A stretch of 63,385 bases of DNA, filler included, from Klebsormidium nitens (taxonomy: Eukaryota; Plantae; Klebsormidiophyceae): assembly GCA_000708835.1 (NCBI GenBank). It is 7 parts of 6 records of this genome, joined end to end, with 100 filler letters (N's around TTAATTAATTAA, not from the genome) between each part and the next. Parts side by side here need not be neighbours in the genome. Positions count along the whole stretch, not along the records: positions 54,851 to 63,385 come from DF238012.1; 6 more parts are not named here. The stretch is one strand, 5' to 3'. Positions 17,883 through 63,385 of the stretch are shown piece by piece. Below the pieces are notes generated by a model, which was not told where the DNA came from, did not search any database, and worked only from the letters and a program-made list of their open reading frames with translations. How positions within the stretch are numbered: the stretch's first letter is position 1; every line of letters begins with the position of its first letter. The position numbers and the translations under genes were made by a program.

Positions 17883-17963
17883 GTGGACAAGAAGAAGCCA
17901 TCCAGGGACGAAAAAGCGGGAGAGGAGCCCAAGACCGGTGGCGAAAGCAACGCTCCCTTGTCG
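17883..17963 (+). CDS. 81-nt exon VDKKKPSRDEKAGEEPKTGGESNAPLS, paralog of the first visible exon of the primase-helicase gene
   Basis: ttgctag| ... |gtaag; same length, phase and similar sequence as 55059-55139; the contig ends 44 nt later. Confidence 0.7.
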
Positions 17964-31454: not shown

Positions 31455-31939
31455 CCCCCAGGGCCGGGAATGGCAATGGTCTGTGTGTGCGCGGTAATGG
31501 GAGTGCCTCAGCCCCTATGGGAGCCCCAGGGCCCTTATGGCTCATAGCCTATGCCAGAAGGCGGTAGCCCGGACATGTAAGGTCGGCCAACTGGCATCTA
31601 GACACGCCATGCTTGACTAATTTAAGCACCCAGCGTTCTTGCCCTGCAACGGCCAATCGGGCTGACGAATGCTCTCTCACTCATACATCAACACCAAAGT
31701 GCATGGTGCGGTTGGCGACAACAGGCTATGATGGTTCATGTACGTGCTTGGATGACACGATCGATAGTCAAAGCTCTCCGCTCACTTCAGGCAAGGAGAA
31801 TCTCAATCCGAATATCGTCTAAATGTGCTCATAGAATGAGTCGAAGCATCAGGGTGAGCCACGATCGCAAATCAAAAGCTGAGGGAACACAAGAGCATGC
31901 ATATTCGGAATCGTGGGTGCTCGACGGCTATCGCTGGTA

Positions 31940-38504: not shown

Positions 38505-38839
38505 GACGACACAATGGAAGGGACCAGCTGTCGTGACCCTACAAGGCCAGGTTGAATGTAATGACTAATCTGTCTCAACAAACATACGCATGCACCATTT
38601 CTGTGCGCTTGCCACTGCGCTGCGAATGCAACTCCTATCAGTGCGCACTCATGGAGAACTTTCAAGAGCAAGGAGTCCTTGGTCCACCTCGTTCAGACTG
38701 AGTCGCTCAATTCACNNNNNNNNNNNNNNNNNNNNNNNNNNNNNNNNNNNNNNNNNNNNTTAATTAATTAANNNNNNNNNNNNNNNNNNNNNNNNNNNNN
38801 NNNNNNNNNNNNNNNTTTTCTTTTTTGCAAATTAAAAAT

Positions 38840-39509: not shown

Positions 39510-39584
39510 TTAGTTTTACTTGAGATAATCTACGCGGGAATCAAACCAGAAGTTTATATATCTTCCATATAGTAAAGACGAAGC

Positions 39585-40817
39585 ATGCCACCGAAACGTG
39601 CGAGTAAGAATGCAGGCAAGGTAATCAGTTTAGAAGACGTTTCAGAACCTTCGACGTCCGCGGCGGCGGTTCAGACCAGAAGCAAAGCAGCCGCACCTGC
39701 CCCTCAGCCAGCACCTCCATCCAAACCGAGGCGGGCAGCCAAAGGTAAGGGGAAAGAAAAGGAGAAGGTTGTGACGATTGAAGATACGACTCGTCAGATT
39801 GATGCAAACGCCAACTTAGCTCCCGAAACGCAATCAGATTATGTGCGCAAGACCAATTTTATCAGTCGCTGTCTCAACGAGAAGAACATTCAGAAGCTTG
39901 TAAATCAGCCAGACAAGGTGATTGAGTATATACGAAACAGGTACACGAACATGAATTCACGCACTGGTTATGCTACAGCGTTTTGCTCGCTTTTAAAACA
40001 TACAACTTTGCAGGTGACAGATGCGGTGCAACAGAAGTTCTTTGATTTCATGATGGAATCAGCGAATGCCGTTCAGGAAATTAACAAAGACAACGTGCAT
40101 AAGGTCGATGAAGTCATGCTGAACGGCAAACGAATTGTGTGGCGAGACATTCTCAATCTTGAGGCAAAGATGCGCAAAGAACAATATGCGAGCAAAGACC
40201 ATCTTTTGGTGGCACTTTTTTGCCTAGTCTCCCCACGACGTTTGCGCGATTATTGCAAGATGGATGTGTTCAAAAGCAAGGCGGAATATGACCGAGCGGG
40301 TGATGTCAACAAGATGTGGCTCGATACTCGAAACAAATGTGCCCACGATAGCATCTCTGATTTCAAAACTTTCAAAGATAAGGGAACCTACACTGCAAAA
40401 ATTACTGGAGTCCTATATCAAATTATCAAAACTAGTCTAGCGGAACACAAACGGCGTTGGTTATTTCAAAACACAAACGCCGAGCCCTATACAAGCGGAA
40501 CGTTCTCTAAGCTGCTGTCTGATACTCTAAAAGGAAACCTACACTGCAGCCTTTCTTTAAACAGTTTGCGTCACCTAAAAATTACAAGTTTCTTGGCTCA
40601 GAATCCGTCGTTGAGAGAGCGGGAACAGCTCGCTTGGGAGATGGGCTCGAGTGTTGCTATGCAAGCTGTGTACAATCAGCCTGACACCGAGGCCACCCGT
40701 GCAGCTCGAGCTGCAGAAAAGAATGTAAGGTTAGCTGAAATCAGAAAGCTTCGAGAACAGATTGATGCGAGTATAAAAAAGATTTCTCAGCTTAGTCAAG
40801 AGCTTGCTGAACTGTAG
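39585..40817 (+). CDS. Tyrosine recombinase/integrase of the PLV/virophage type
   Basis: SPRRLRDY (Arg), FKTFK (Lys), NSLRHLKIT (xxxRH), AWEMGSS (usually MGHS) and AVYN (Tyr); intronless, 410 aa. Confidence 0.85.
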   Translation: MPPKRASKNAGKVISLEDVSEPSTSAAAVQTRSKAAAPAPQPAPPSKPRRAAKGKGKEKEKVVTIEDTTRQIDANANLAPETQSDYVRKTNFISRCLNEKNIQKLVNQPDKVIEYIRNRYTNMNSRTGYATAFCSLLKHTTLQVTDAVQQKFFDFMMESANAVQEINKDNVHKVDEVMLNGKRIVWRDILNLEAKMRKEQYASKDHLLVALFCLVSPRRLRDYCKMDVFKSKAEYDRAGDVNKMWLDTRNKCAHDSISDFKTFKDKGTYTAKITGVLYQIIKTSLAEHKRRWLFQNTNAEPYTSGTFSKLLSDTLKGNLHCSLSLNSLRHLKITSFLAQNPSLREREQLAWEMGSSVAMQAVYNQPDTEATRAARAAEKNVRLAEIRKLREQIDASIKKISQLSQELAEL

Positions 40818-41508
40818 ATATTTCTTTGTGCACTGTCTTAACATGACGATGAATGCTATTTTTTCTCATTTCTTTGTTACAAAGCAGACACTTTGCTTTG
40901 GACTTGTTTCTCGCAGACACTTTTTCTTTTGTGCTTTCTCTGTAAAGTTTGCTAACCTCAGAATGGTGATCTTTATTCTCAGCATAGTACTTCTTCTTAC
41001 TTTCGAGGTTTCTTGCATACCTTTCTTTTTGTGCCTCAGTTGCTGAATCGTGATGAAATTTCGCCATGTGCTTGAAGAAATAGGCAGCTTTAACCACAAC
41101 AGAACAATGTTCACAATCCACCTCCTTCTGCTGTGACCGGACTGTCCTTTCATTGCACAGCTCCCGGTTTTCCTGACGGTACCTTCCAGCATACTCTTGC
41201 TTATCCATCTGAGGAAACCTTGAATTCAGAGTTGGCTTCAGACTTTCATACCAATACCTTTCACGCTTGACCAACTCTTCTACAGTATTACAAGGATATG
41301 TCTCGATTAGAATGATCCTCACATTCTGCCAGCCAATCGCATTAAAGTGCTGATATACTAGTCTGCCCATCTCCTTGGGGTTGTTTGACTTGCAAACATG
41401 CTGAGTTTTTCTCTGACAGAGTTTCTGAATGGTGGAGCCAACATAGAACTGCTCGTCATGGTCAGAAACAAGCTTGTAGATCTTCCCATTGGCATAATTC
41501 AAAACCAT
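40792..41508 (-). CDS. GIY-YIG endonuclease with two C-terminal C2H2-like fingers
   Basis: GKIYKL..FYVGST..L.QR...H, ILIETYPCNT.EEL.KRERYW..LN; CEHC..H...H and CLLC..H...H. Confidence 0.9.
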   Translation of the reverse strand: MVLNYANGKIYKLVSDHDEQFYVGSTIQKLCQRKTQHVCKSNNPKEMGRLVYQHFNAIGWQNVRIILIETYPCNTVEELVKRERYWYESLKPTLNSRFPQMDKQEYAGRYRQENRELCNERTVRSQQKEVDCEHCSVVVKAAYFFKHMAKFHHDSATEAQKERYARNLESKKKYYAENKDHHSEVSKLYRESTKEKVSARNKSKAKCLLCNKEMRKNSIHRHVKTVHKEISTVQQALD

Positions 41509-41683
41509 TGTGTTGTATTATACTGTATTCTGTTGCGTTCTCTTTAAGTGCTAACAACTTACCAAAAAGCTTGTCTGCAAGCCTGGTCCAAGCACATTTT
41601 GGCCACTTGACCAGGCTCGATTTCAATATCAGATTCTACAACTGAAGTTTCAAACTGCATGGACAACAAAATAAGCGACTCAC

Positions 41684-43377: not shown

Positions 43378-45949
43378 CTTGGGCTACTTCCGGCGCATGT
43401 CCCTGCTCAGTGACTTCTTTAACAAGAAGCTTGTCCTGCCAACCCGCCTCTTGGATTTGCTTGGAGTGACCTACTATACTGCAACCCAGTTACCCGGCTG
43501 GTTTGTCATCACAACGGGTTTCCACCAGGCAAGCCCACTTGCTCTCCTCTCTTCTTGATGGTCCTTAACCTGTCCAAACTCGACAGACAGCATTGTCCAG
43601 AACCGGTGCAGGTCTTCAGCAAGCTCAACATTTAGCTTTTTGATAAAGAGCATTGTTGGCATGCCATTCTGAGCATCTCTAGGGAATTGGGGTTTCCCAA
43701 CACACTCAGCGACAACAAGCTTCTGGAGTATGCTTTTGCTTTCTAACAAAAAGCGTGCTCTAAATGCACTTCGTCCTGACAGCTCTATTGGAATTTAGCA
43801 TGCATTAACAGTATGCCTTTGATTTCTGGAAGCGGCGAAGGCCTCGCATTGTGGTTGCTCTGTTGCATCCAGCAACCTCAGCAATAGCTTTTTTTCAGGA
43901 CAGAGAGCACCTTCTGCTTTGACAAGGCCTTGCATTGGTTGCTCTGTTGCATACAGCATGCTCTCAGCACATCCAGCTTTGTTTTTCGAGTACAGATTGC
44001 AGTGTCTGCTTCATTCCCACCATTCTGAGGGGAAAAAAGGATGCATCCAGAGTTCCAATTACATTCGTGAAATCTCTGCACAATCTGTTGATGCTGTCTT
44101 TCGCATGTGCAGGTGCGGAACTCGGGGTTCAACAAGGCCTATGCTGTCAATTTCCCAGTTCCAAGGTCTCTTGCCCGGTACCTTACAGCCGCTGACCAAC
44201 TGCGCCAGCTCACATTGCAAGATCCCAAAGTGGCCCGTGACCAGGTGCCCGTCCTCAAGCTTGCGCTCGACTTCCTTGATTCCGAGCAGAAGCGTACTGG
44301 GGTCTGCTCGCATGCCGTGGAGTGCCTGTGGAAGCTTCTCGGGGACATCGACAAAACACTGCACGAAAACAGCCTTCGAACGTCCTTCCCATCCAATGAC
44401 GAGTCTGCCAACCGCTACCCTCCCAAAGAAAGGGGCTCAAGGTACACCAACTGGTGGAACTCGGTGGGGCTGCAAGCACCATGCCTGATCTGCGGAGCTG
44501 ACACGTGCTTTGCTGCTGTCAAGCTCGAGGGCTCGAACGTGGGGTGCCTCAATTGTCTCGAGGACGGCTTTCTAGAGCACGAGGAAAAGGCGGAGATCCT
44601 GGTCTACCCAGAGCTTGAGCGGCTCAGAAAAGCCCTTCAGCTCGTGCACCCTTCACCCTGCGAAAGCTGTTGCCGGGAAGGGCTCGGAGCGTCCGAGGAG
44701 GAGCTGGCAGAGTTAAGGAAGGAAGAAGCCCAGGGGAACCTGGTCTACCGGGATTGTCTAGAGGAGCGGGGTTTTACAGGAGTCCTCAAACTCTCTGCGG
44801 ATGGCAAGCTGACGGTTGGTACACGGGAGGTCACCAAGGAGCTGGCAGAACGGGTGTATGTAGCCGGTGCAGGGGCTGCGGCAGAACGTGCTGAGGCTCA
44901 GGGATTGCTGCCCTTTCGAGGGTTGGTGCCACCACCTGTCTTCAAGCTGTTCCATGGACGAGAACCTGAGCTCGAGAAGCTGCTTGCGGAAAAGCGGAGG
45001 GGGTCGCGGGACACTAAACAGGCTGCAGCGGATCTCCTCAACCTTCACCACACTAGCCCCTCGACATCCGGCGTCCCTGCTCCGCCTGCTACGCCCTCCA
45101 CTCGAACTAGCCCTCCTGTTTCTTCCCCCCCTACAGTCTCCAGCTCTTCTGCATGGCTCCCTCCAGGCGCTCCCGTATTGTTCCCTGCTGTCGAACCCAC
45201 TTCCAGCCCATCCGGTCCGGTTCTGCATGCTGACTCCCTTCCCAGCCCTTGCCCGGTCCTTCCCACTCAACAAGCTCCAAGCTCTCCAGGTTTGTTTCCC
45301 CTTTCTTTCCTGACAAGCATGGCAGTTTTTGATACATGGCTTTTAGCATGGCTTTATGAGCTTGGAGAATGGTGCTAATTGTTTGCACGGTGTTCACGTT
45401 TTCAAACTTTTGAATGCTCATTCTGTAACACCATCTGCTGCAACAGGCAGCCCGACAGCTTCGGTGCCAGTTGCCACGTCTCCCATGGGGCTTCCCTCGC
45501 AAGATCCAGGCGATCGATACGCCAAGCGCCAGAAGCTACCCACTCTGGTAAAATATCCTTTCGGTCTGCCCATCTACATGTATTTAAGCCTTCTAGTTTA
45601 AGATTGTTCCTACTGCCATGCGTTGCCACTTTGTTCTGTCACATGTCTTTATTGATGTATTCGCAGAGTTTGATAAGAATGTATCTTTGCAATGTAGGTG
45701 TGGCTAGACGACGCCCCTGCCAAGTACGATGCAATATGGAGCAAATTAGGGATCAACAGTCCTGTCCTAGATAGTGCAACAGGAAGGGCTGATCGATGGT
45801 GTTTCCAGGTTCCGGTTGCTAATAAGAGCCGGCGGTCTGTGAAGAGTACAAATTTCTGGACCGCAGTGGAGAAAGCATGTGAAGTAGCAGGAACAGTAGT
45901 GCCAGAGGACATGCGTTCAGCGAACGTAAACGATGTTATCGAAGTGTAG
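43378..45949 (+). CDS. JmjC-domain + C5HC2-like zinc-finger protein (KDM5/JARID-like), 5'-truncated by the contig end
   Basis: Exon to 43528 (...GVTYYTATQLPGWFVITTGFHQ) splices via a GC-AG intron (43529-44112) to VRNSGFNKAYAVNF, matching the JmjC C-terminal Q.PGEFV.T...H...N.GFN.A.AVNF motif; then CLICGADTCFAAV..GCLNC. Further exons 44113-45289, 45447-45547 and 45698-45949. Confidence 0.75.
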
Positions 45950-46092
45950 ATCCCCCCTGCTTGATCCCCCCTGCTTGATTGCTTGATCCCCTCTGCTTGA
46001 TCCCCCCTGCTTGATCCCCTCTGCTTGATCCCCCCTGCTTGATCCCCTCTGCTTGATCCCCCCTGCTTGATCCCCCCTGCTTGATCCCCCCA
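45949..46092 (+). repeat. 14-bp minisatellite GATCCCC(C/T)CTGCTT, 9 full + 2 partial units
   Basis: Starts on the last base of the JmjC-gene stop codon. Confidence 0.95.
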
Positions 46093-46203
46093 GAACCCCA
46101 AAACCCTAAACCCTAAAACCCTGAAACCCTAAGTTCCCAACCCAGGAAACCCTAAACCCTGAAAAACCTCAAACCCTAAATTTCAAAATTTCGTAAACCC
46201 TAA
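46093..46203 (+). repeat. Degenerate telomere-like (AAACCCT)n tract
   Basis: About 9-10 units of aaaccct(a/g). Confidence 0.75.
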
Positions 46204-47507: not shown

Positions 47508-48278
47508 TCACTCTGCTCTCATCACACAGCTGCTCTTGTGCTCGGGCCAGTGGTCTCTCCGACACTCCTTACTGCAGTACGCGACTCTTCTGCTCCAGGA
47601 GCACGACCATAGCGATCCGAAAGAAGCACGATCTCCTTGCTCTGACGCCTTCCTAGCCTCGCCGCAAGAGGCACACACGAGCCGTGCTACGGTTAAACCC
47701 GCTAACATCTTCGGACACATGTCCTCGTCCTTCGGGGTACCAGTCTCCATCAGAGTCTGATTCAAGGACTTTCTCAGATTCTTCGTCAGCGCTTTGGTCG
47801 GCCTGATCGACCCGTCCTCGAGGTCGAACAAGGTTTCCATGATCACCTGCACCTTCTTGTCTTTCTTCCTCCAAGAGGACAGGCAGTCCGTTGCGAGGGC
47901 TTCATCCCGGAGGATGGTCCTGCTAACCATTCCCAGGTAGTAGCAGTATACTCCCTCGTCGTGCTCCACTAGGAACCACTTTCTGATCTCGCTGAACAGC
48001 AGATGCGTATTCTGAGTCATACACCGTCGGAGTGCGTCTACCCGATCCGGTGCCAGTGTCCCGTCCCAGTGATTCGTCAGTACGCACATGACAGCTTGCG
48101 AGGCGAGGCGCGCACACGCTGCCAATTGCACCCCCTCGGTGCTCGTCGAGTCGACCTTCGACTTTCTCAACACCCGGAGGATGCTGAGGAGGGCATCGGG
48201 ACCCCGCTCATTGTCGAGCAGCTGGCGTACGGTGACGGTCGCGCGGTTCAGGACGCGCAAGCGCTTAGAGGCGTCCAT
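47508..48278 (-). CDS. Intronless protein with a C-terminal MYND-type zinc finger
   Basis: CASC...CSWSRRVAYCSKECRRDHWPEHKSSC (one Cys replaced by Ser). Confidence 0.8.
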   Translation of the reverse strand: MDASKRLRVLNRATVTVRQLLDNERGPDALLSILRVLRKSKVDSTSTEGVQLAACARLASQAVMCVLTNHWDGTLAPDRVDALRRCMTQNTHLLFSEIRKWFLVEHDEGVYCYYLGMVSRTILRDEALATDCLSSWRKKDKKVQVIMETLFDLEDGSIRPTKALTKNLRKSLNQTLMETGTPKDEDMCPKMLAGLTVARLVCASCGEARKASEQGDRASFGSLWSCSWSRRVAYCSKECRRDHWPEHKSSCVMRAE

Positions 48279-48470
48279 CGGCCGATGCCCGAGAAGTGAA
48301 TCTTGAAAGAGTGGACGGGTTCCTTATATATCACCTCTCCTTGCTGTCTTGTGACGATTCTGACTGGGGAAGTCGCTAAGGTAGGGTCATTTAAGTAGCC
48401 CCCTACAAGACGCATCGTTCATTGTGTCTTGTGGGGTTTTTGACCGGGGATTTCGCTGGGAGTTTCTCCC

Positions 48471-49970
48471 TCAACTCACGACGTCGGGATTTCGCAGTCT
48501 TGCGGTGAGAAACTGCGATACGGCCTTGACGTTCTCAGCCGTAAAGCCCCGCGGGTATATCGTTCTTCCCGCTCGATATCTATCCGGATGATACATGAGA
48601 AGCAGATGCTTTATGATCGGCTGCGTCAGAGGAATCCCTTCGATGCCTCGGATGCCGAGCTTGGAGAGCGTGGCGTTGTCTGATGTGGTCTTTCTGAGGA
48701 TGAAATGCCTTTTGGCTTCCTTTCCTAGCTTGTCCAGCGTCTCCAACAGCTTCTCGTCCTGGAGCCTCGACTGATCCGGCGCTCGCTGCTTCCGCACGGC
48801 CTCGTCGGCTAGTCGCTTCTCTTCGGTCATCCGTTTCCGTGCGGTCTCTTCGGCGAGACGCCTCTCTGCCGCTCGTGCTTTATTCATCAGACGCCTGCGC
48901 TCGGTCTCTTCGGCGATTCGTTTCTGTTCTGCCAGGCGCTTCCGCACGGCCTCGTCTGCCAGTCGCTTCTCTTCTGCCTGACGCTTCAGCGCGGCGTCTT
49001 CGGCGAGGCGCCGCATATGGTCCTCCATCGCTCGTGCTCGTTCCCTCGAGCGCTCTTCGGCGAGGCGCTTCAGCTCGACATCTTCGGCGTGCTTGCGCCT
49101 CGTCTCTGCGGCGATGCGCTTCCACGCCCTCTCGCCCGTCTCTGCAGGCGCCGCACTCGGAGACCCCCTGCCCCGTCCCTTGCGTCCGGCATCCTCCGCC
49201 GCTCTCCGCCTCCGCTCGGCCTCCTTGGCCCGCTCTTCGGCCGACCTCCTTCTCTCGACCTCCACCGCCTGCGCCCGTGCTCCCTCCGCCGCTCTCCGCA
49301 TCCGCTCGGCCGCCTCGGCCAGGCGTCGCTGCGCGTCCTCAGCGGCCCTCATCTCCTGGGCTCCCGCCCGCTCCCGATTCGCTTCGTCAGTCTCCGCGCC
49401 TCGCGGTGCTTCCGTAATTGCGGCGCGCCGTCGCCCGCGATCGCGCTCGGCTTTCCCGGCGGCGAGTTCGGCCATGCGGAGCACCCGCTCTCGGTGCCTC
49501 TCCATCACTTCCGCTTGAAGGATGTCGAATTGCGCACGGCGTTCCTCATCCGTCTGGTGCGCGCCGTGCTGCACCGCTGCAGCCCCCCCGTCCCGCTCCG
49601 CCGTCCGGCCTCCGTCGTCCTGGGCTCGCCGTGCCCGCAACCGCTCGGCCTCTTCCCGTAGCCGCTTCAGCGCCCCGCCATCGACGCCCTCCGCACCTCG
49701 CACCGCTTCGATCCGTTTCTCCAGGTTTCCGAGCCGGGCCTTCAGTCGGTTCTCGCGCTCCGCTTTCGTGGCGGCGAGCTGGGCCATGCGGAGCAGCCGT
49801 TCCTCGTGCCTTTCCATCACCTCGGCCTGAAGGATCCGGAAACGTTCTTGGCGCTCGTCGGGCGTCGGGAGTGCGCCGTCCCGCGCTGTTGACACGTCCG
49901 CACCGCGGTCGGCAGGCGGCGTGCGCTCGTCCTCATCGTCGGGTCCCGATGAGTCGGCCCGAAACAGCAT
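48471..49970 (-). CDS. Long coiled-coil protein with internal duplication and a C-terminal J-domain-like HPD motif
   Basis: R/E/A-rich; ERF.ILQAEVMERH.ER.LRMA.LAA occurs twice; IIKHLLLMYHPDRY. Confidence 0.7.
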   Translation of the reverse strand: MLFRADSSGPDDEDERTPPADRGADVSTARDGALPTPDERQERFRILQAEVMERHEERLLRMAQLAATKAERENRLKARLGNLEKRIEAVRGAEGVDGGALKRLREEAERLRARRAQDDGGRTAERDGGAAAVQHGAHQTDEERRAQFDILQAEVMERHRERVLRMAELAAGKAERDRGRRRAAITEAPRGAETDEANRERAGAQEMRAAEDAQRRLAEAAERMRRAAEGARAQAVEVERRRSAEERAKEAERRRRAAEDAGRKGRGRGSPSAAPAETGERAWKRIAAETRRKHAEDVELKRLAEERSRERARAMEDHMRRLAEDAALKRQAEEKRLADEAVRKRLAEQKRIAEETERRRLMNKARAAERRLAEETARKRMTEEKRLADEAVRKQRAPDQSRLQDEKLLETLDKLGKEAKRHFILRKTTSDNATLSKLGIRGIEGIPLTQPIIKHLLLMYHPDRYRAGRTIYPRGFTAENVKAVSQFLTARLRNPDVVS

Positions 49971-50306
49971 CTTTTAGAGTACACCCAGAGGAAAACGGCC
50001 GACGTGCCGCAAGCGACATCCGCACCGACCGGCCGACGTGCCTGTCCGCCCGTCTGCGTCCGGCGACATCGAGACACGTTCTCCGATTTGCATCGGTGGC
50101 GCAGGTGGGCCGTACTGGCGGCGCGTTCGACGACCGCAAATACATGATACCGTAAATTGAAGCATACACGTAGACATGGCACCGTTTAGGCCGGAACACA
50201 CGTGTCGTCTTATGAGTTGCACACATGGGTGTTGTGCTGGTTTGGTGAACGTTCGGTGAACGTGAACGGCGACTGGAACTGTCTCCAATGACTATCCCCT
50301 AATCCA

Positions 50307-51455
50307 CTAGATCTCCACTCGCTTGCGCTTCTGGCCTAGTCTCCTGCCTTCTATGTTGCTAGTCCACTCGTAGCCGTCGTAACACATATGCTCCACCGTG
50401 ACTTCGCGATCCGGCACGTTGGTGAGATGGTAACGCAGGCGCTCGATGAACGCACCCATGCGCCCCTCCCACGTGGCCAGGTCCCGTATTACCGGCACTC
50501 CGAGCTTGTTGTACTTGAAGCAGCCCCGGTGCTTGATCCCGTCCGTAGACGTAAAGCCGTCCGGATTGAACCGCAGCTGGACCTGGGGGCGGTCGCCGGC
50601 ATCCTGGAAGAGCTCCATCGTGCGCTTGCTCTCGCACGTAGCGTCACGGTGCTGATCCTCGTCGTTTTCGCAGTGCACCGTATGAGTGTACACGTCCACG
50701 AAGATATCGGGCCGCTTTCCCGAACATCCCCCTTGGAGCCGCTTGTCGAAGGTGACCCCCGCATGCTCTGGAAGAACGCCTGCCGCCTTGATGTAATCAG
50801 CGAAGTGCTGCTCCTTGACCTTGTAGTTACGGGCTACTGGTTCGTCGGGAAACAGGTACACGAAGCACCTTATGCAGTATCCTCTGTACCGCTTTTTGAC
50901 CGACGTACCGCACCCGTTGGTGCACTTCGGGTGTACCACGTCCCGCATATGTTCGGTCTTGCACGTGCTGCAGTGAGTGGCCCTGCTGCCTTCGAGCCCG
51001 AATGTAGGCAGCCCCCTCCGGCAGGCGCACTTCGGGTGTACCACGTCCCGCATATGTTCGGTCTTGCACGTGCTGCAGTGAGTAGCCCTGCCGCCTTCGA
51101 GCCCGAATTTGGGCTGCCTCCTCCCGCAGGCGCACTTCGGGTGTGCCACGTCCCGCATATGTTCGGTCTTGCACGTGCTGCAGTGAGTAGCCCTGCCGCC
51201 TTCGAGCCCGAATTTGGGATGTCTCCTCCCGCAGGCGCACTTCGGGTGTACCACGTACCGCATATGTTCGGTCTTGCACGTCCTGCAGTGAGTAGCCCTG
51301 CCGCCATCGAGCCCGAACGAAGGCCGCCCCCTCCCGCAGGCGCACTTCGGGCTTACCACGTCCCGCATATCTACGTTCTTGCACTTGCTGCAGTGAGTAG
51401 CCCTGCCGCCTTCGAGTCCGAAAGAAGGCCGCACCCTCCCGCAGGCGCACTTCAT
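50307..51455 (-). CDS. Giant-virus-type endonuclease: five 35-aa EsV-1-7-like Cys repeats + PD-(D/E)xK/Vsr-like domain
   Basis: KCACGR..P.FGLEGGRATHCS.CK five times (105-bp units); KRPDIFVD..HCENDEDQH..QLRFNPD. Confidence 0.9.
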   Translation of the reverse strand: MKCACGRVRPSFGLEGGRATHCSKCKNVDMRDVVSPKCACGRGRPSFGLDGGRATHCRTCKTEHMRYVVHPKCACGRRHPKFGLEGGRATHCSTCKTEHMRDVAHPKCACGRRQPKFGLEGGRATHCSTCKTEHMRDVVHPKCACRRGLPTFGLEGSRATHCSTCKTEHMRDVVHPKCTNGCGTSVKKRYRGYCIRCFVYLFPDEPVARNYKVKEQHFADYIKAAGVLPEHAGVTFDKRLQGGCSGKRPDIFVDVYTHTVHCENDEDQHRDATCESKRTMELFQDAGDRPQVQLRFNPDGFTSTDGIKHRGCFKYNKLGVPVIRDLATWEGRMGAFIERLRYHLTNVPDREVTVEHMCYDGYEWTSNIEGRRLGQKRKRVEI

Positions 51456-51486
51456 TGTAAAGTCCGAAAACGTTATGGCACCCTGC

Positions 51487-51540
51487 GCTTCCTTAAGACG
51501 TGTACAACTCCCCGCTTCCTTAAGACGTGTACAACTCCCC
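51487..51540. repeat. Perfect 27-bp tandem duplication just upstream of the endonuclease start
   Basis: gcttccttaagacgtgtacaactcccc twice. Confidence 0.9.
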
Positions 51541-51850
51541 GATTGCTGATTGTCTGGGTGCGTAATGTATCTGCTGCATTTTGGGGTAGCGCTCCATCAC
51601 GCCACTCCCCCTCCTCCCCCTGTTCCCAGCCCCATGCCACTTTCCACTCTCCTGCATCGCAGGGCGCCCCGTCTCGATGCACCCCCTCCTTGGCCCCACG
51701 GCACTTCCTTATACCCCCGCGCACACATACCGCCTCGTATGCGAGACCACCCGGGCCACCCGGAACCGGAGAAAGTTACCGAAATGAGGGTCCATATCAA
51801 AGTCCCCCAGAAATATGACTTTTGGCCGATGATGTGTCGCAGCTATTTCT

Positions 51851-52381: not shown

Positions 52382-52693
52382 CGCCAGGTGGAAGCAAACA
52401 GTGTATGGTCCTGGTTTTAGGGTATATATAAGAAAGCTATAAGAAGACCTGATCAAGACGTGCTTTCAGATCAGCGACTAGGGTGTAGAAAGAGACCACA
52501 AAGACATGTCGTGTTTGTTAGGATCCCAACCTATACTCCATTGTACATATCCACACCCATTTGCCCCGTCGTGCATCGTAGAATCGGGCGCTATATCCCG
52601 ACCGGCATATAATTACGCAGTCCTCGCTCAGCGCACACATCTATGGTATGGTCCCTCATGGATGGTACATAAGGAACGCCGAACTCATTGATT

Positions 52694-52852
52694 CTTTCAA
52701 AAATCACTTCCCGGGAATCGACCGATGGACGCCTCCAAGCGTTTGCGCGTCCTGAATCGAGCAGCCGTCACCGTACGACAGTTGCTCGACAATGAGCGGG
52801 GTCCCGATGCCCTCCTGTGCATCCTCTGGGTGTTGAGAAAGTCGAAGGTCGA
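52694..52852 (+). pseudogene. Inverted partial duplicate of the 5' end of the MYND gene (48151-48308)
   Basis: MDASKRLRVLNRA.VTVRQLLDNERGPDALL.IL.VLRKSKVD is near-identical, including ~30 nt upstream; diverges after KVD. Confidence 0.85.
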
Positions 52853-54231: not shown

Positions 54232-54877
54232 GACTTATAACGAGCGGTTCGGGAAACGAACAGTGCGTTCCGAGCAAGAGCACGACAATTTCTTTCAGAA
54301 TAGCTGCTTCGCAATGAAGAACCAGCGTCACGAAAAACTCGCATGGGGATATCACTGCTCATAAGGTGGTTGAAGCTAACCTAAACTACTATGCAGTATG
54401 GGCGGCGATTGTAGCAGCCCTGAATTCGCAAACAAACGAGACATTGCATGCTACGAGTGGGGTGTACAGGAACAAAGTCTTGCTGCTCAGAGCAAGCCAA
54501 CTTGGCATGGATCGTTAATTGGCTCATCATGCAACTTCACGGGACCCGCACCTCGTTGGATCATGTTAGGAGCCAGCTCGGCGTGGAATACGTGCAAACA
54601 AGAGTAATTTCGACACTAGGACCTCAGAATCACTCAAACCCTAAAATTCAAATCTCTGACCTACGCTGAGAATGGTCACACTTACGTCGTCGCCGGACAC
54701 CGCCGCCATCGCCGTCCCCTTTCCGACTTCTTTCATGGCCGTCAGCATGTNNNNNNNNNNNNNNNNNNNNNNNNNNNNNNNNNNNNNNNNNNNNTTAATT
54801 AATTAANNNNNNNNNNNNNNNNNNNNNNNNNNNNNNNNNNNNNNNNNNNNTGTCAATTTTCGGGCACAACCCCGGAA

Positions 54878-55010
54878 AGGGGGTAAGGGGGCAAGCTAGA
54901 TTTCTCGTCGATGGACTCCCCTGTTTTTGCCCCTGTTTTTGGCTCAAGTCCCTAAGGGGGTAAGGAGGCAAGGGGGCAAGCTTTCTGAGAACTCCCACAA
55001 ATTTTTCTTG
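54878..55010 (+). repeat. Iteron-like GTAAGGGGGCAAG array, 2 copies plus shared flanks
   Basis: Matches 17512-17820 and the reverse complement of 56740-56935. Confidence 0.85.
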
Positions 55011-55058
55011 TGACAATCTCTGCCATCAACTATAACTAGATGTCTTTTTCATTGCTAG

Positions 55059-58000
55059 GTGGACGGGAAGAAGCCATCCGGCAACGAGGACGCGGAAAGG
55101 GAGCCAAAGACCGGTGAAGGAAGCAACACCCCCCTGTCGGTGAGCACCTCATACTCGAAGCTTCTCTGGCGGCCTTCTTTGCACATCACTTCTTGTCTCC
55201 ACTGTAGGCTTTCTCCCACATTCTCTGGTGTGTGGCAAGTGTGGCAAGAGACACATGGTGTGCAGGGGTTGACGCCATTTTGAGGGATTCTAACCAAGTG
55301 CTCCAATTCTGGAACACTTTGTGTGGCAGCCGTTGTAATTCTGTGAAGACTCCCTTCTCCTACGCGACTAGAAATACTCTCTTTTTATGAATTTTTCAAA
55401 AAAATTAAAAAGGATATGCTCTTGATGCAGGCCGAGCCGGCACTGTACGCGGTCTTCGATCGCTTCAACAAGGGCTGGTTTTCGAGGAAGGATCCGGCAT
55501 CCGGACTCGGGCCCAAAGACCTCGCCGTGCAGCACATGTGGAGCAGTGGGGACAGGCTGATCGTGGCCAGCGACGTGAGTCCGACGGCAGGCACGAAGAT
55601 GTACGGCACTTTCGCGACCCCCGCGGCCCTGGCTGCCCACCTCGCTCTGTTCCCGACGGTCGGGATCGACCCCGTCTTGTACGAGGGGCTCCTGTCCGAG
55701 ACCCCATCCCGCATCTACAACGATCTGGACAACGAGGTGCTCGAGCGCGACGATGAGGCCTTCGCCGTCCGCGTCCGCCATTTCGAGCTCGTGAGGGATG
55801 CCTTCCTCACTAGCGTCCTGCTCATCCCCGCGGAGGAGATCGCGTTCCAGTCCTGCCGGGCGAACGGGGGGAAGGCCAAAACGTACAAGTACAGCAGGCA
55901 CGAGGTCATGCAGGGCTTCTTCCTGCGAGACCACCGCGCGCGCCTCCTGTTCAAGCATGCCTTCGAGCGCTTCCAGTTGCACCTGCCGGACGAGCTGAGC
56001 CACTGCACCCCGTTCCTGACCTGGCTCGACCCGACGAGCGGAGGGGTCAAGCCGTTCTGGGACCCGAAGCCGTATGCCTCCTTCCAGTGCTGGCGGACGC
56101 TCTACTCGAGCAAGATGGGGTCCCTCCGCCCGCTCTTGCCCGAGGAGGGGAGCTCCGTCCGCATCGAGGACCACCTGATCGGCGTCTACGACGAGGGAGC
56201 GCTCCACAGCATGCGCGAGATCGACACCACCCTCTTGGAGGGTTACATGAGGGGCTCCACCCCTTCGGGTGCCCCCAGGAGCGCCCCCCCGGGAGCGGCC
56301 GATGTGAGTTCGTTCACATGATCCACTCATGAAAGCTCACTCCTGCTGTTGGTCATCATCATTGATTCTTGAAATTTCTTTTGAGATAAAGAGAGACTAG
56401 GTACCAGGAAGGGAAGAAAAGCCAGACAGACGGATCATCATTGCTACCTCCCTGCACACTTGCTCGTTGCTCTACTTGGTGGTTCATTCATGATTTTCTT
56501 TGAAAAGAAATTCAGAATATTCAACATACAGGTAGGTGTTGGAAGCCTCTTGAAATGGGTGGGAGCAATACGCAAGACTCGTGGACGAAATGCTCGATGA
56601 TCCTCATCTCCTCCGTTGCTGTCGATGCAGGATGCGGCCGTGCCACCGATGGCGGGGACGTCCGGCGATGGCGGGGGAGGAGCGAGCAAGGAAGGCGAGC
56701 AGGTCAGTGCACGCCCAGTCGGATCGTTTTTCGAAAAAGAAATCTCTGGGAGTTCTGAAAAAGCTTGCCCCCTTGCCCCCTTACCACCTTAGGGACTTGA
56801 GCTCGAAATAGGGGGCAAAAAAGGGAATGGAAGATGGAGGAAGATTCGNNNNNNNNNNNNNNNNNNNNGAGCCGAAACTAGGGGCAAAAGGGGCATCGAC
56901 GATCGAGGAAGATTCTAGCTTGCCCCCTTGCCCCTTCTGGATCTTCGAGGAGAAATCAACATGTACTCCCAGGCCCCCTTGAAAATTCAGACGGTGTTTG
57001 GGGTAAGTTCCAAAAGGCTTGCCCCCCCTTGCCCCCTTACCTACTTAGGGATTTGGGTCGGACACGAGGGACCTCTTCACTGACAACCTCCCACTAAACG
57101 GACGTTCTGCAGGAAGCGCCGCCTCCATCGACGGTGAGAGCGCATAAAAACCACGCTGAGGAAGCAGGCAGGAGGGAGGAACCGGTGAGTCTCCTCTTTG
57201 AACACCTTGCCCCACCTTGCCCCTTACCTACTTATGGACGTGAGCCCGAACTTGCAGCCAAGAAAAACACTGCCTCCATTAGAACGATTCTAGCTTGCCC
57301 TTCTCTCTCTGCTTTGTGAGCTGGCCTTCAATTTGATCGAAGACATGTCGTACCTGTAGGTTCGAGGAGCCCCCCGACCCGAGTTGGACGTCGACGCCGG
57401 CGACATCCAGACGAAGGTTGCAGATGATATCCTGCAGACGCTCAAGTTTTGGGGCATCAACTCGTGCACGTTCCGCAAGGCGAAGCCTCTGACAGGCGGT
57501 GCGGTGGGGATGATGTACATCTTCGATCGGAGCTTTGATGCTCCGGGGGGCGGCGCGTGCCCCTTTCTGGATGTTGGTCAGCTCCACTCCAGCAACTACT
57601 TCTTCGTCGAAAGACGGGGCACGCGGCTCATCTATTGCTGCAATAGCTCGACCTGTCGGTCTCAGTTCGGCCCGTGCAGAAGGAAGAACATCGGCTATCT
57701 AACGAGCGCCACCAGCTCCATCTTCTGCGATGCGCTTCCCTTCACGGACATCCTCACCAACGTGATTGACATCTTCGGCCCGGATTTCCTCGCCTTCAAC
57801 CTGAGCAAAGGCTCCGGTGAGTGACCTCAGACTTCGTGTCAAAAAATCCTTCTGACCACCGATGACTGCTGTTGGTTTTCTTCACTGCACCCCTTGGCCA
57901 TGTTCGATGCTTGAGCTGCGCACATTCGCTCCCCCTTTGCTCTCCATCCATCCACCTGCGGTGCTGTTTTGGACCCTTCACCGTTGCTTTCAATGCTGGA

Positions 58001-60124
58001 TCGGCGCACTCCGAGCCGGCCTTATGACCCACAGATACACGCATTGCGAGCAAACCCCAAAGGTTTCTCCTAGGGCAAGTACTTTGCAATCCAATTCTGA
58101 AAAAAGGTTAGGATCCTCTGTGTTATCTGTGGGTGCCTTCGTACTGCCTTCTCCGTTTTCGCTTCAAAGCCTCCCGCTCCTATTGAAGTCTTTGCTCTCT
58201 TGCTCACAGGCGATCGAGGTGGTGCGGACATCCTCCACGCTCTCCATAATGCGAGGGGTATGAAGGTCGCCTTTGCACCTGGCTCGGTGATGAAGTTCTG
58301 TTATTGGAGCGGGCGCAATTGGAGGTGGGACGAATTGGATCAAGTCATCACCCACGTGTTCCAGGACCAGCTCTTGCGTGTTAAACGGGAGTTCGTCGAT
58401 CACTGCACGGCAAACGACCTCGATGAGCCAAAAAAATACACGGACTTCCGCTCGAACGCACAGATGAACAACATAGTCACCACAGCGAAACGCCTCTTCC
58501 GCAATCAGGCCTTTGTGGGCGGCCTCGATCAGGACCTCGATATTTTTCCTCTTGGAAACGGCGTCCTCGATATCCCGTCGGCCACCCTTCGGCCCCATCA
58601 TCCTCGTTTCATGATCAGTCTGATCCACGACAAGCTCGATTGGCCCGATACCGGCCTCCACACCCCGCTCACCGACTTCGAGCCGTTCATATGCGAGGTG
58701 ATCGGCAAAAATGTGAAGTACTTCCAGGTGCTCATGGGGTACATGCTTACGGGGCAGACGAACATGCAGTTTGTCTGCTTCTGGGTCGGCGCTGGTGAGT
58801 AGTTTTTTCCACCTCTCTCTCGCTCTATTGCCTCTCTCCCTGCTAAGTCCACTGTAGTTTTGAGCACCACTCAATCCTCCTTGTTTGAAGTTCCCTCCAC
58901 TTCCCCTTCTTGGCTCATTCCTCCCTCCGGACGTTGCTCGCAAACGCTTGTACTACGAAGCTTGTGTTAAGCGGCTCAATGGCCTGTCTGATGTAGGAGC
59001 CAACGGCAAGAGCACTTTGAACAACATCTGCCAAGAGGTGCTGGGTCCGTGGTATAGAGACGTCGGCAAGAGCCTGCTAATGACCAGTAGCAAGGACCAG
59101 AAATCCAGCGCGGGAGCCGCATCGCCGCATCTAGCAGGTATGAATGATTCACCTTATGACATCGACGGATATGTGAGTAGTTGCCTTGCAACCTGCGGCA
59201 TGATGGAGCTTCGACAGAGTGCACCTTTGTCCCTCAAAAAGGATCGTCTGACGCCTGAATCAACTTGCTTGTCTTCGTCCATGCAGTCCTGAAGGATGCG
59301 CGGCTGGTCATTACCGAAGAAAGCGATGATATGGATCACATCGACAAGACGTCTTTCAAGAAGCTGAGTGCCGCCCGGAAGCTCACCTTCCGCAAGCTAT
59401 ATGAAGACGTCTCGACCTGCAACATGACACACAAGGTGATTGGACCACTCTAGCTCCCCTCCCCTCCCGACGGGTGCTGAGTTTATGAAGGGGAGTTTCT
59501 GAGTGTCAACATTCATTCGTCCTGGACGCGTGCTCTACTTTGATTCCTCTGACCAATCTTGTGCACCTTCCTTTGCAGCACGTCGTGCTGACGCAGCAGC
59601 TCCCGCACGTGGATCCGGACATTGGGATCATCCGACGGATCATGATCGTCACATTCCTTATGCGCTACTTCCATGATCGCGAGGCGGGGTTCGACAGGAA
59701 TAACCCCCTACACAAACGGGTAGATCCGACCATGGAGACCCGGATGTTGGAGCCTCGCGTGATTCAGCAAGCGCTAGTTTGGATGGTCATCGGGGCAAAG
59801 AAATACTACGAAGCAGGGAAGTCGGTCGGAGCGGTTCCGGCTGAGTTCTTGCAGGCGTTGGAAGAATACGTGCGGGAGGAAGACAAAGTTGGGACGTTTG
59901 TCGAAGAGTATTGCGAGCTCGGTCCGCAAGCGACCCACCGAGTTCGACAGTCCGTGTTCGTGGATGTATACAATCGCGAGATGGGATCCGCTGTTCAGCC
60001 AAGGCACCCAAGCTTTTGGAAGAACTTTCTCAAGGCCTTCCCGTCGGTGCAGAGACTTGAGAATAAAAAGAGCGGCGGGAACATCCTTGCTGGGATCAGG
60101 CTGAAGGGCGATGGGGCCGTGTAG
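55059..60124 (+). CDS. Intron-containing viral-type primase-helicase: AEP/PrimPol + Zn finger + D5_N + SF3 helicase (>=974 aa, 5' end missing)
   Basis: Exons 55059-55139, 55431-56303, 56631-56702, 57113-57133, 57360-57816, 58210-58794, 58997-59137, 59287-59435 and 59579-60124 sum to 2925 nt, phase-consistent. AEP motifs RIYNDLD, KYSRH, DPKPY..QCWRTLYSSK; CPF..HSSN..C..C; Walker A GAG|ANGKST; Walker B LVITEE; IIRRI. Confidence 0.9.
56740..57302 (-). repeat. Iteron-like array in inverted orientation, about 5 copies, in primase-helicase introns
   Basis: cttgcccccttgcccccttac units near 56763, 56915, 57018, 57205 and 57290; interrupted by a 20-N gap. Confidence 0.85.
58027..58134 (+). mobile_element. 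108-bp MITE-like hairpin element, copy 1 (in a helicase intron)
   Basis: Ends ACCCACAGATACAC / GTGTTATCTGTGGGT are inverted repeats; other copies at 61366-61473 and 62855-62962. Confidence 0.7.
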
Positions 60125-60419
60125 CTCATCGACAGAAATAGACGCGAGCTTTGGTAGACGCATGTACATATTGTAAATTGAACAGTGAAACGAGTGTTTC
60201 TTCTGGTGATCCTTACCAAAACTGAACTTCCCGTATGCATGCAGCATCTGAACGATGATGACACCATCTATGCCTATCCACACGGTCTGCTCATCTGCAT
60301 CGAGATTGCTATCTCTTGCCCTACTTAGGGCTTTGGTCCCCAGATATGAGTCATATCTATTCGCTCTGCTGGAATTTACTACTTACGAAGTAATAGGGGC
60401 TCACAATTACCATAGAATC

Positions 60420-61015
60420 ATGCTGCTGTACATCGGCGCCGGCTCCGACGTTCGCCCGATCACTGACCTCCCTTACGAGCATTTTCTCTACGTTGATGCG
60501 CTCCCCAATAAACCGCACATAGGCCCGAGCACGGCGGCTATCCTTTTTATAAGGACGAAGAAGCCCTTGTTCATACTCTGGAGACGGAACTCGCTGATTC
60601 TGGGTGCGTCATCGATTCCAAAGTCAAGCTATCGCCGACCGTGTACCGGTACTCGATCGACGGTGACAAGGTTCAGACGTACGCCATCAATACGCTGGAC
60701 GAGCGCGCGCACGAGGTCCCGGAAGTGGCTTCACTGCTTCCAACTATCTCCGCTGTTTTCTTGGCGGGATACGCGCCTATTTTCAACGGTCTGCTTCCCA
60801 GCCTGAAGACCATTTACGCCTCCCCGATCGTGGAAGACATGCTCTACGACGAGTGGACGAAGCAATTTTGCAAGGGGCGGGAGGTCGAATGGCTTCGCGT
60901 GTACGATTCCGATTGCTCGGATAGAGACGTCTTCGACAAGCTTCCAACGTGGTCGGATGACTCGGAGTACTCGGAGAGCCAGTATTCGGACAGTCAGCAT
61001 TCCGACATTGAGTGA
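60420..61015 (+). pseudogene. Frameshifted virus-type hypothetical gene with a SAM-binding-like N-terminus
   Basis: MLLYIGAGSDVRPI..FLYVDALP shifts frame near 60520 into EHGGYPFYKDEEALV...YRYSIDG...SDIE*. Confidence 0.55.
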
Positions 61016-61365
61016 ACCGCTTATCAGACATAGAGAGATTTTTTAGGTAGATTGTTAGGAGAACGACGAATAAAGACATTGATTTGAGCCTAAATGTATG
61101 CTTCAATGTTCCACAAGCATTGACTCACATGCAAGAACCCTCTGGTGCTTTTTCAACCAGGGCTTGCGAATGGATGCATGGCTGCACAAACGAGACCCCC
61201 TCGACCCAAAGCTCATTATTGGTTCTCTGCCACTGCGACGAAATGGCGGGTTCGACAATCGAGCTGCGAGGATTCGAGCTCCTTTGGGTTACCACACATG
61301 CACTCGCGCCGCTCAGAAGGAGACAAAAGCGAGAGTGTCACGCGAGATGGGCAGATTGGGGACGG

Positions 61366-61473
61366 ACCCACAGATACACGCGGCGCGACCAAACCCCAAA
61401 GGTTTTTTCTAGGGGCAGTACTTTGCAAACCAATTCTGAAAAAAGGTTTGGATCTTCTGTGTAACGCGTGGGT
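61366..61473 (+). mobile_element. 108-bp MITE-like element, copy 2
   Basis: Aligns end to end with 58027-58134. Confidence 0.7.
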
Positions 61474-61839
61474 GTCTAAGTACAGCCTTTTGCATCTTCC
61501 CTCCCGACCCCCCCTCGAGCCGATTCGAAAATGGCGGCACGGCCTTCGGAGCGGATCGATATGCGGTCGAAGGGCTCGAGAATGGCGAGGGTGGCCCTCA
61601 GTCGAGGGACTCCGTTGGCAGAGGGCGCCCTCTGACGCCCTCGTTTGTGCCCAACCGAATGCTGCAGCCGCCCGAGCAATCGTCTGTGGATGCTGAAGCA
61701 GGTACCTTCAAGTTTTCCGGTCCCAACGAGCGTAAAGAAAAGACGAAAAGTACTGCCGTCAAGTTGCGAGAATTTTCGAGGGGATCTAGGAGGCAAAAGG
61801 GGCATGTCCTATCCTATCAGCAGCTTAGGGGAATGATGC

Positions 61840-63385
61840 ATGTACAGAATGAGTCAAAGCATGACGGAGACTCAGAAGGAGCGCGCGGATGGAGCGCCCG
61901 GATGGGAGTTGCGAGCTGACGGGAGAATTTTTGCGTGCTTGCTAGTGCACCCCCCGGGTGCGACGAGCTGCGAGAACGAATATGCTTCGAAGCAAGGGCT
62001 TGAGATGCATCGCAGGCGGATGGCCGTGCAAGAGCCCAGCCTGCCAAGCCGACGGACCGTCTCGAGATTTTTTGGGCTCGACGAGCAGGAAGCGAAGCTG
62101 CTGAAGGCGAGCCGCAACGACTCGTACGTCGCGAACTACCGCCGCACTGCAAAGGGGAGGCTCGCAACATTTCGTGCGAGTCATTCGAAAGAGCTGCAGC
62201 TGCGTGCAATGGAAGCTCTGCCGTATCCAGAGCCACTCCCGCCGCCCGCCTATCTGCCTCCCCCCATCTCCTGGCTCCTGAGCAAGAGGCCGATTCCTGC
62301 GGAGGGCTTGACGGACCTCTTCGCGAGCACCGCAGGCGGACTCAAGATCGACCATCGGACTTGGAGTCTTCAATATCACCCCGATCACGTGCAGGTGAGC
62401 CGACAACACGGATTGATATACTGAACACAGCTGTACACTTTCGACCGAACACCCATTCAACCCTTTTTGAAAATATGTTAGTCTGTACAGCTTTGTGTGC
62501 CTTTTCACTCTCAAAAACCTGATTATACTTGTGAATGTACACTTATTACTTGAAACATCTGTGTTTTCCGTGAACATTCCTTTTGGACCCATCGAAAGTC
62601 GATGAGAACAATTCGAAGTCTTTTCTCCGCCCCGTCTCCCTCCAAGACGTCTGAAGGCCAAACGGGCTCGACCCCAAAAGCAACAGAGGAGTCGAGCGAG
62701 ACATGTCGGCCACCATTCAAGCATTTCTAATGCACTTCGTCGCTCAAACGAGCTCGTTCTAAGTCCATCCGGCTGGCTTCGGTCGCACCCTGACGAGGAA
62801 ACGCAAGAACTTTGAAAGGATGTTGCTTTTCTTTGAGAAGAGCAATCTCGAGGCACCCACGCATTACACAGAGGATCCAAACCTTTTTTAAGAATTGGAT
62901 TGCAATCTACTAGGCCTAGGAGAAGCCTTTGGGGTTTGCTCGCAATGCGTGTATCTGTGGGTCGTCCAGATCCCATGCATGATTGGTTCGACCTTCGATA
63001 TCAGCCAACAGCGTGCGCCTTTTTTGCAGGTCAAGAACCCAACCGCCATCGAGGCCTTTGAGAAGCATCACGGCTACTTCATGGATGACGAGCTTCAGGG
63101 GCTCGACTCATCGGCGCGTGCTCAGAAGGTCCTCTCGATCTACTCGACCATGCTCTTTGCGCCCCTCAACGAGCACCGCTTCGGCCCCGGCACCGTGGCG
63201 CAAAAGCTCGGCGTTTTCGAGTGGAGGTGGTGGCTGAGAGGGGAGTCCGATTTGATCCGGGATTATCACACGTATTTGCATCAAATCGGTGCGCACGATG
63301 CTGCTGCAAAAGCGGCCAGAGCAGCTGTGAATGCGGCGCGCGAGCGGTGGTTTGAGAGGGAGATCGATATCAAGTTCAAATGTTC
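61840..63385 (+). CDS. Spliced protein with a C2H2-like segment and an HPD motif, running off the window
   Basis: ORF 61840-62394 (CENEYASKQGLEMH; WSLQYHPDHVQ) has donor gtgagc at 62395, phase-0 acceptor at 63029, and an open frame VKNPTAIEAF... to the window end. Confidence 0.6.
62855..62962 (-). mobile_element. 108-bp MITE-like element, copy 3 (inverted, intronic)
   Basis: Reverse complement aligns with copies 1 and 2. Confidence 0.7.

Follow-up and report, generated by a model that had tools for sequence, protein, structure and literature searches.

The window analysed here, a stretch of 63,385 nt from Klebsormidium nitens (GenBank assembly GCA_000708835.1), consists of seven parts of six records joined by pads of 100 filler letters. 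Its last part (54851-63385, from DF238012.1) carries, at 55059-60124 on the + strand, a gene for a D5-type primase-helicase. As the initial annotation had proposed, nine exons separated by GT-AG introns can be joined into a frame of 2925 nt, which codes for 974 amino acids and ends in a single, terminal stop codon. The predicted protein comprises a PrimPol-like archaeo-eukaryotic primase (AEP) domain, a putative zinc finger, a D5_N domain and a superfamily 3 (SF3) helicase. The parts of the locus are as follows.

54851-55058, +: what is left of an upstream intron after truncation at the assembly pad; contains the GGGGCAAG repeat, which occurs inverted in introns 3 and 4
55059-55139, +: exon 1, low-complexity linker, not the true start, phase 0-0
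55431-56303, +: exon 2, PrimPol-like AEP domain with DLD, SRH and FWD motifs
56631-56702, +: exon 3, candidate only, 72 nt, phase 0-0, GC 0.74, weak donor GTCAGT
57113-57133, +: exon 4, candidate only, 21 nt, phase 0-0
57360-57816, +: exon 5, putative C-H-C-C zinc-binding module and linker
57817-58209, +: intron 5, at the boundary between the zinc module and D5_N; holds a repeat of about 113 nt (58026-58138) resembling a miniature inverted-repeat transposable element (MITE)
58210-58794, +: exon 6, D5_N domain and first half of Walker A
58795-58996, +: intron 6, phase 1, splits Walker A (GA-G-ANGKST)
58997-59137, +: exon 7, remainder of Walker A (NGKST)
59287-59435, +: exon 8, Walker B (E755) and conserved R779
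59579-60124, +: exon 9, motif C (Q799), arginine finger R813, C-terminal domain and stop

The eight introns measure 143-410 nt, all of their 16 splice dinucleotides are intact, their GC content is below that of the exons, and seven of them would bring in stops if read through. Six can be regarded as supported and all eight as plausible. In the helicase half, the predicted exon model is fixed by homology as well as by frame. With profiles scored on single exons, phrog_1156 ends at its position 566 on exon 6 and restarts at 568 on exon 7, while TIGR01613 (NCBIfam) ends at 83 and restarts at 86, a collinearity that bears out the phase-1 intron placed inside Walker A. At intron 8, positions 557-599 of phrog_6088 are matched by residues 1-43 of exon 8 and the profile restarts at 607 with residue 2 of exon 9. 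When aligned with 21 D5 homologues, the splice pairs chosen at junctions 7 and 8 need no gap, and the sole gap at junction 6 is one opened by two intein-bearing rows; in-frame GT/AG pairs lying at most 45 nt from introns 5, 6, 7 and 8 number 6, 13, 10 and 9, respectively. Profile collinearity rules out a chance chain of exons for this half. Self-splicing introns and inteins are ruled out as well, the introns being short, of the GT-AG type and devoid of open reading frames (ORFs). From these features, the gene is probably spliced in the host.

The model is less secure in the linker half. Since exons 1, 3 and 4 are all in phase 0-0, the frame provides no test of them; the argument that exons as small as 21 nt keep the frame is thus automatic and loses its value. 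Between exons 2 and 5 there are eight candidate symmetric mini-exons, among which those numbered 3 and 4 are favoured by their GC content (0.74 and 0.71 versus 0.44-0.53). Of the count of at least eight introns given at the outset, six stand, and the two that depend on exons 3 and 4 are a guess. Sister sequences back intron 1 as well as the donor that follows exon 2. Exon 1 also has a paralogue elsewhere in the window (17883-17963), with which both splice sites coincide, nucleotide identity being 78% inside the exon and 50-52% in the adjoining 60 and 44 nt. No start codon is included in the model because the contig begins at 54851, right after a 100-nt pad (54751-54850). Repeat units of the GGGGCAAG / CTTGCCCC type fill the intron before exon 1 both in the D5 copy (54869-55016) and in the paralogue (17509-17840), and inverted units fill introns 3 and 4 (56728-57265), where they flank both mini-exons.

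The domain assignment made initially, i.e. an AEP-Zn-D5/SF3 fusion, holds overall. Exon 2 has no family match in Pfam, PHROG or NCBIfam, and 36 relatives were found among 1.84 billion representative proteins. The exon-2 family profile (16 rows) matches human PrimPol at E 7e-8, Atlas assigns the exon to the AEP_C962R clusters (0.97), and its predicted structure (mean confidence score, pLDDT, 90.3) puts DLD and SRH on strands. The AEP catalytic motifs DxD, SxH and hD are present as DLD, SRH and FWD, with D98, S155 and H157 invariant in the 16 rows. The zinc module is putative: the Cys/His pattern of exon 5 lines up with the post-AEP module of relatives, it exceeds 100 shuffles in only one of eight comparisons, and no Zn/PriCT module was matched in Pfam. 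Exon 6 corresponds to D5_N (PF08706, E 7e-11, 43 bits versus a cut-off of 22.4; phrog_6088, E 2e-15). Searched against longer proteins, it yielded no full-length annotated relative among 198 candidates, this search being a weak one. Exons 7-9 have no helicase family match in Pfam and exon 9 alone matched no relevant solved structure. G695, N699 and K701 of Walker A and E755 of Walker B agree with all 89 references, and R813 with 88 of them, in a set from which eight split, intein-bearing or partial rows had been excluded beforehand and to which two loci without a match did not contribute. The departure is in motif C, which senses ATP hydrolysis in SF3 helicases. It reads TQ rather than TN, as first noticed, Q799 replacing an asparagine present in 88/89 references, and the codon, CAG, is two changes away from an Asn codon.

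The initial annotation had missed that the gene appears to be multi-copy and chimeric, that it is truncated at its 5′ end and that it seems to be tied to a family of leaders with a 2A-like motif. The copies are seen first as sister proteins: three of the 36 relatives of exon 2 are 86-92% identical to it, and three of 22 candidates for exon 6 are 86-93% identical. Shared intron positions are visible in four of the six. The donor that follows exon 2 is read through in P0001 and P0015, and the one inside Walker A in P0037; P0038 starts in translated intron 5, with the internal repeat of about 113 nt, and continues into exon 6. Since the same donors and the same intron are read through in the sisters, the introns would be older than the copies, and copying would have taken place as DNA. 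Among more distant AEP fragments, eight of 13 end in unmatched tails of 14-193 amino acids. Scans for related loci returned no relative in viral contigs (with exon 6, P0019 and alignment patterns) or in metagenome contigs (with alignment patterns).

It had been supposed that the gene is kept intact under selection. The data do not show this. Two of the six sisters (P0002 and P0039) contain frame switches, so that disabling mutations in other copies, named at the start as evidence against the idea, were in part found; P0038 has an early stop. Differences of the CpG-deamination type from the window copy make up 13 of 33 in exon 2, where 8% would be expected. Compared with P0038, exon 6 differs at 24/176 residues and the ungapped 89-codon part of intron 5 at 8/89 (p 0.32); there is no sign of selection in this pair of sequences. 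The window copy itself has an observed/expected (o/e) CpG ratio of 0.99-1.14 in exons 2, 5, 6 and 9, versus 0.40-0.68 in four introns; it retains the family-conserved E158 and K228, which P0001 has lost, and its branch in the AEP tree is shorter than that of P0001 (0.022 versus 0.066).

Clues to the missing 5′ end lie elsewhere in the window, in the following parts.

12325-14073, +: leader copy A, which opens the paralogous 5′ half; made up of five exons, with a degraded 2A-like motif (GCVERHPGQ)
14199-18007, +: linker of paralogue A, acidic exons and the exon-1 paralogue 17883-17963; cut at a pad
28345-30305, -: leader copy B, ends in IGGVESNPGP and is followed by cargo at 25647-24940
36139-38504, -: leader copy C, ends in IGGVERNPGP and is followed by a NACHT-like NTPase gene

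At the end of the contig 11006-18007, exon 1 and the intron that precedes it both have a paralogous counterpart, 73-81% identical over 160-280 nt; as the match extends over the intron, intron conservation is also high there. Within the same contig, 16993-17478 matches the linker of P0012, a leader-AEP protein, at E 1e-6, and through 15550-17515 no single open frame could be obtained. A stretch of 35 nt is identical between a linker exon of this paralogue (15944-15978) and the sequence after the D5 gene (61658-61692). All three leaders have intron phases 1, 1, 1, 1, 0 and a 144-nt Cys/His exon, for which the comparison of B and C gives rates of 0.23 for nonsynonymous (dN) and 0.88 for synonymous (dS) changes. 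The residues upstream of the 2A-like motif are split by an intron, and the cargo after the motif differs from copy to copy. In the available text of PMC6249498, GxExNPGP is a skipping motif. No Pfam family matches the leader at the cut-off, and the idea that its zinc finger is an EsV-1-7 repeat was rejected, no such match being found at E 10. Three introns of leader C (gene at 38504-36401) are bridged exactly at the predicted sites by contigs from three of four runs; these contigs are 100% identical in the pieces listed and span at least three junctions, the runs being taken as RNA by guess. Many contigs of 85-95% identity in three runs over 24449-38715 point to further expressed leader paralogues. 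For 55059-60124 no RNA match was listed among 24 runs, and the four runs compared with 54851-63385 gave no contig there; this absence of cover carries no weight as to expression. Outside the window, a 2A-like motif stands ahead of an AEP in P0008, and leader and AEP occur together in P0012 (DSNPGP). From its paralogue, then, the D5 copy would once have carried such a leader too.

As to the other cargoes, that of leader B (25647-24940, -) has a conserved-looking WDGGEKFY motif and no match in Pfam or NCBIfam. The NACHT-like NTPase gene that follows leader C (34841-32060, -) is spliced in three runs, and its C-terminus presumably resembles the restriction endonuclease (REase) part of Crinkler-type NTPase-REase proteins.

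Sequence comparison makes the protein look chimeric, its AEP going with a family that includes an AEP-UL9 fusion and its helicase with phage-type D5s. In a quick AEP tree of 30 rows, the window copy falls inside a 19-row clade (SH-aLRT 99) containing P0021, in which AEP-Zn is fused to a UL9-type SF2 helicase; P0019, an intronless AEP-PriCT2-D5 protein, falls outside this clade, as do seven further AEP-UL9 proteins. In 79 viral and phage loci, none of the ORFs was matched by the AEP profile at E 1e-3, and the phage collection yielded no match for the AEP. The helicase half shares 20-30% identity with every relative found. It groups with five phage rows and L025 (a locus read as phage by eye from terminase- and portal-like ORFs) in a 90-row tree, and joins phage rows in a 20-row tree as well. 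In blastp, phage rows score 114, 105 and 100 bits and the best non-phage viral rows 105 and 104. A profile of exon 6 built with, and dominated by, D5 relatives finds C962R and D5 structures. The initial annotation had asked for a phylogeny with the D5s of nucleocytoplasmic large DNA viruses (NCLDVs). The helicase does not group with those sampled: the AU test rejects its union with 10 NCLDV-type rows (p-AU 0.0024), on the basis of a quick tree for 20 hand-picked rows, with a long branch, a group named after the first tree had been seen and a set free of named phycodnavirus or Polinton-like virus (PLV) rows. This rejection does not bear on phycodnavirus-type D5s. Phycodnavirus primase-helicases group with phage homologues in the available part of PMC3493329, and, because their D5s are themselves phage-like, a phycodnavirus or a PLV could still have supplied the helicase.

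How unusual are the introns? In 76 of the 77 viral and phage loci with a D5 match (79 were compared) the match lies within one ORF; the remaining locus, L003, has it split over two. The punuivirus D5 gene is listed with 0 introns in the portion of the PMC13692296 supplement available, and Polinton-like elements are treated as intronless, with surveys relying on intron-blind gene finders, in what is accessible of PMC10120064. The claim that this type of gene is normally intronless was thus correct. Spliceosomal introns in virus-derived genes do have precedent, as far as the accessible parts of the sources go: the latent punuivirus has them in 61/506 genes (mean 2.5; PMC13692296), mirusvirus genes carry them, crowded in virion genes (PMC12768974), and they are described in genes of the giant endogenous viral element (GEVE) of Rhizophagus (PMC10640383) and in viral genes, KDM4-like ones, of Amoebidium (PMC11244446). 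Like the GEVE and mirusvirus genes, the present one looks virus-derived and has GT-AG introns in a eukaryotic nucleus; unlike in mirusviruses, where mainly virion genes are concerned, no virion gene was found in this window. Our literature searches, in which subscription papers were thinly covered, brought up neither a multi-copy D5 gene rich in introns nor a five-exon 2A leader. Two surveys of 2A mention neither primase nor helicase in their main text, and their supplements could list the motif.

Other known systems resemble the gene in part. Poxvirus D5 and African swine fever virus C962R (NCVOG0023) also combine AEP, D5_N and SF3 in one chain, but the protein studied here has no PriCT-2, has Q in motif C, is 20-30% identical and is encoded with at least six spliceosomal introns. 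In its scores with the helicase half, the P4 family of phage primase-helicases (TIGR01613) is level with the best non-phage viral rows, and the half groups with phage, whereas the AEP is without a match in the phage collection and the gene has introns. There is a likeness, too, with the polisuvirus AEP-SF3 replicases, in which AEP and helicase are swapped, the partner being an exchangeable SF3 or SF2 helicase, and from which mobile AEP-SF3 insertion sequences have been proposed (10.64898/2026.10.13.758929). According to the accessible text of this preprint, those sequences are multi-copy (12 copies in Bodo saltans virus) and need neither a capsid nor flanking repeats. They differ in being located in viral genomes, the comparison being one of descriptions only, and the accessible text does not mention spliceosomal introns, a 2A leader or a family on host chromosomes. 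In some non-LTR retrotransposons, a 2A-like motif precedes a nucleic-acid enzyme, and CR/Crinkler genes join a fixed N-terminal header to swapped enzymatic C-termini such as NTPase-REase (available part of PMC5289972); unlike in both, the cargo of the present leader family includes primase-helicases.

We tentatively favour the explanation, with a probability of about 0.48, that the gene, of virus or phage type, encodes the replicase of a family of nuclear mobile DNA, either devoid of a capsid or dependent on a helper, which is copied as DNA together with its introns and whose copies are mostly decaying. The host would transcribe and splice the gene; the missing 5′ end would be a five-exon leader, from which an intact 2A-like motif would release the enzyme. 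The hexameric SF3 motor would then unwind the DNA of the element and the PrimPol domain would prime and extend. The enzyme itself would have arisen by fusion of two modules, AEP-Zn and a helicase of phage type, whose boundary intron 5 would mark. Element DNA may be copied into breaks, by analogy with what was proposed for the AEP-SF3 insertion sequences. Primase and helicase activity, mobility and 2A skipping are all predicted. A bolder version would have an undescribed class of capsid-less, spliceosome-dependent elements, with a spliced 2A leader, interchangeable enzymes (AEP-SF3, AEP-UL9-type SF2, NTPase) and a replicase copying its own intron-bearing gene with neither transposase nor capsid; we find this quite unlikely.

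Several points weigh against a mobile replicase. The 8.5-kb contig shows no element termini, no target-site duplication and no integrase, and mobility is thus not seen. The glutamine in motif C could impair ATP turnover. The link to the leader depends on a paralogue that is cut before the AEP exon, that has a decayed 2A-like motif and whose linker could not be read as one frame. The two trees come from quick searches, contain long branches and lack named phycodnavirus or PLV reference rows. In exon 6 the CpG excess is weak (7/50 versus 7% expected). The six sister proteins may come from other strains and be orthologues, errors of assembly may account for their frameshifts, and clustering at 50% makes broken variants more likely to be displayed. 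Lastly, the genes across the assembly pad look giant-virus-like, which fits the alternative considered next.

The best-surviving alternative, in our opinion unlikely, is that the gene is the D5 of a giant virus that became endogenous (phycodnavirus-like or of another lineage using the nucleus), the introns having been gained in latency or after integration and the copies having arisen by repeated integration or segmental duplication. The phage-like primase-helicases of phycodnaviruses (PMC3493329, as available) would suit the phage-side placement, and the introns published for GEVE and mirusvirus genes, in the parts cited above, would set a precedent. An ORF of EsV-1-7 repeats at 50307-51596 (-) matches, over residues 56-408, an ORF of viral locus L022 at E 2e-29. 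Base composition agrees too, since the compact ORFs across the pad have a GC content at third codon positions of 0.70-0.77, exons 5, 6 and 9 of the D5 gene have 0.70-0.78, and the CpG o/e ratio is about 1 in both. However, these virus-like neighbours sit across the pad, and the idea that genes on either side of 100-nt pads are proven neighbours was rejected. The search for capsid and packaging ATPase genes advised by the initial annotation, extended to PolB and VLTF3, was run on 34 ORFs of the window and found no capsid, A32 / packaging ATPase, PolB or VLTF3 family, the contig of the D5 gene itself being 8.5 kb long. In addition, the AEP profile fails in the 79 viral and phage loci, the punuivirus D5 is intronless in the supplement portion available, and the leader is common to a spliced, host-like NTPase gene.

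It is improbable, in our view, that the window copy is already dead and belongs to an extinct family, of which it would be the most recent or least damaged member and would have stayed open by chance. The motif C change in a column otherwise almost invariant, the frame switch in the adjoining ORF (60421-61015), the broken appearance of paralogue A and the lack of exon-over-intron conservation versus P0038 would all suit it. Yet the 974 codons contain no stop or frameshift, all splice dinucleotides are intact, and the four exons examined show no CpG depletion.

Marginally less credible still is a domesticated host enzyme, for repriming or repair in nucleus or organelle, of which the window copy would be functional and the others pseudogenes. 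It would account for 974 stop-free codons in spite of at least six introns, for E158, K228 and the short branch, and for CAG being two changes from an Asn codon, which makes a single recent hit unlikely; but exon 6 is conserved no better than intron 5, exon 1 compared with its window paralogue gives dN 0.24 and dS 0.34 on 27 codons, the weak search for a full-length annotated relative was negative (0/198), and the surroundings are repeat-rich and fragmentary. A vertically inherited host gene, the rival named in the initial annotation, found no support.

The surroundings of the gene offer further observations. Directly 3′ of it lies an intronless ORF (60421-61015, +) with no convincing family match and a frame switch near 60520-60545; its start (YIGAG) is reminiscent of giant-virus methyltransferase-like proteins. 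The MITE-like repeat of about 113 nt, with short inverted ends ACCCAC..GTGGGT, recurs at 61365-61477 and 62851-62963, two of the three copies (58026-58138 included) being in predicted introns. Genes at 62026-63385 (+) and 48471-49973 (-) have no family match and share a YHPD motif, which we take to recall J-domains. The EsV-1-7 ORF has a nuclease-like C-terminus and is enclosed, with its neighbours, by 172-nt inverted repeats (48151-48322 / 52681-52852) that are copies of the start of a MYND gene. A PLV unit of 15-30 kb (capsid, packaging ATPase, integrase, terminal inverted repeats) was not found on the 8.5-kb contig, and the introns of the D5 gene conflict with the intronless style of PLV genes. 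Two pads away, an intronless recombinase-like ORF (39576-40817, +; motifs PRRLRDY and LRHLKIT; weak PF00589 match, E 0.026; no relevant solved structure matched) stands tail to tail with a GIY-YIG ORF (40792-41517, -) on an AT-richer contig, the pair being possibly a PLV fragment. Farther off, 45930-46200 holds a 14-nt tandem repeat and, after it, degenerate CCCTAAA repeats that resemble telomeres of the plant type (near 46090-46200), and 1-1000 and 9550-10287 read by eye like fragments of Copia-type retrotransposon gag and pol.

D5-type genes serve as a hallmark for finding viral insertions, and surveys use intron-blind gene finders, as described in the accessible part of PMC10120064. An intron-split D5 gene such as this one escapes them: exon 2 matches no family of Pfam, PHROG or NCBIfam, and exons 7-9 match no helicase family of Pfam. 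Should it prove merely a decaying giant-virus gene, it would still be an unusually intron-dense example, of modest importance. If, on the other hand, the gene has spread with its introns, the recent proposal that AEP-SF3 replicases can move alone could be examined in a nuclear setting, and a module of viral replication would be seen to have taken up host splicing and perhaps 2A processing too.

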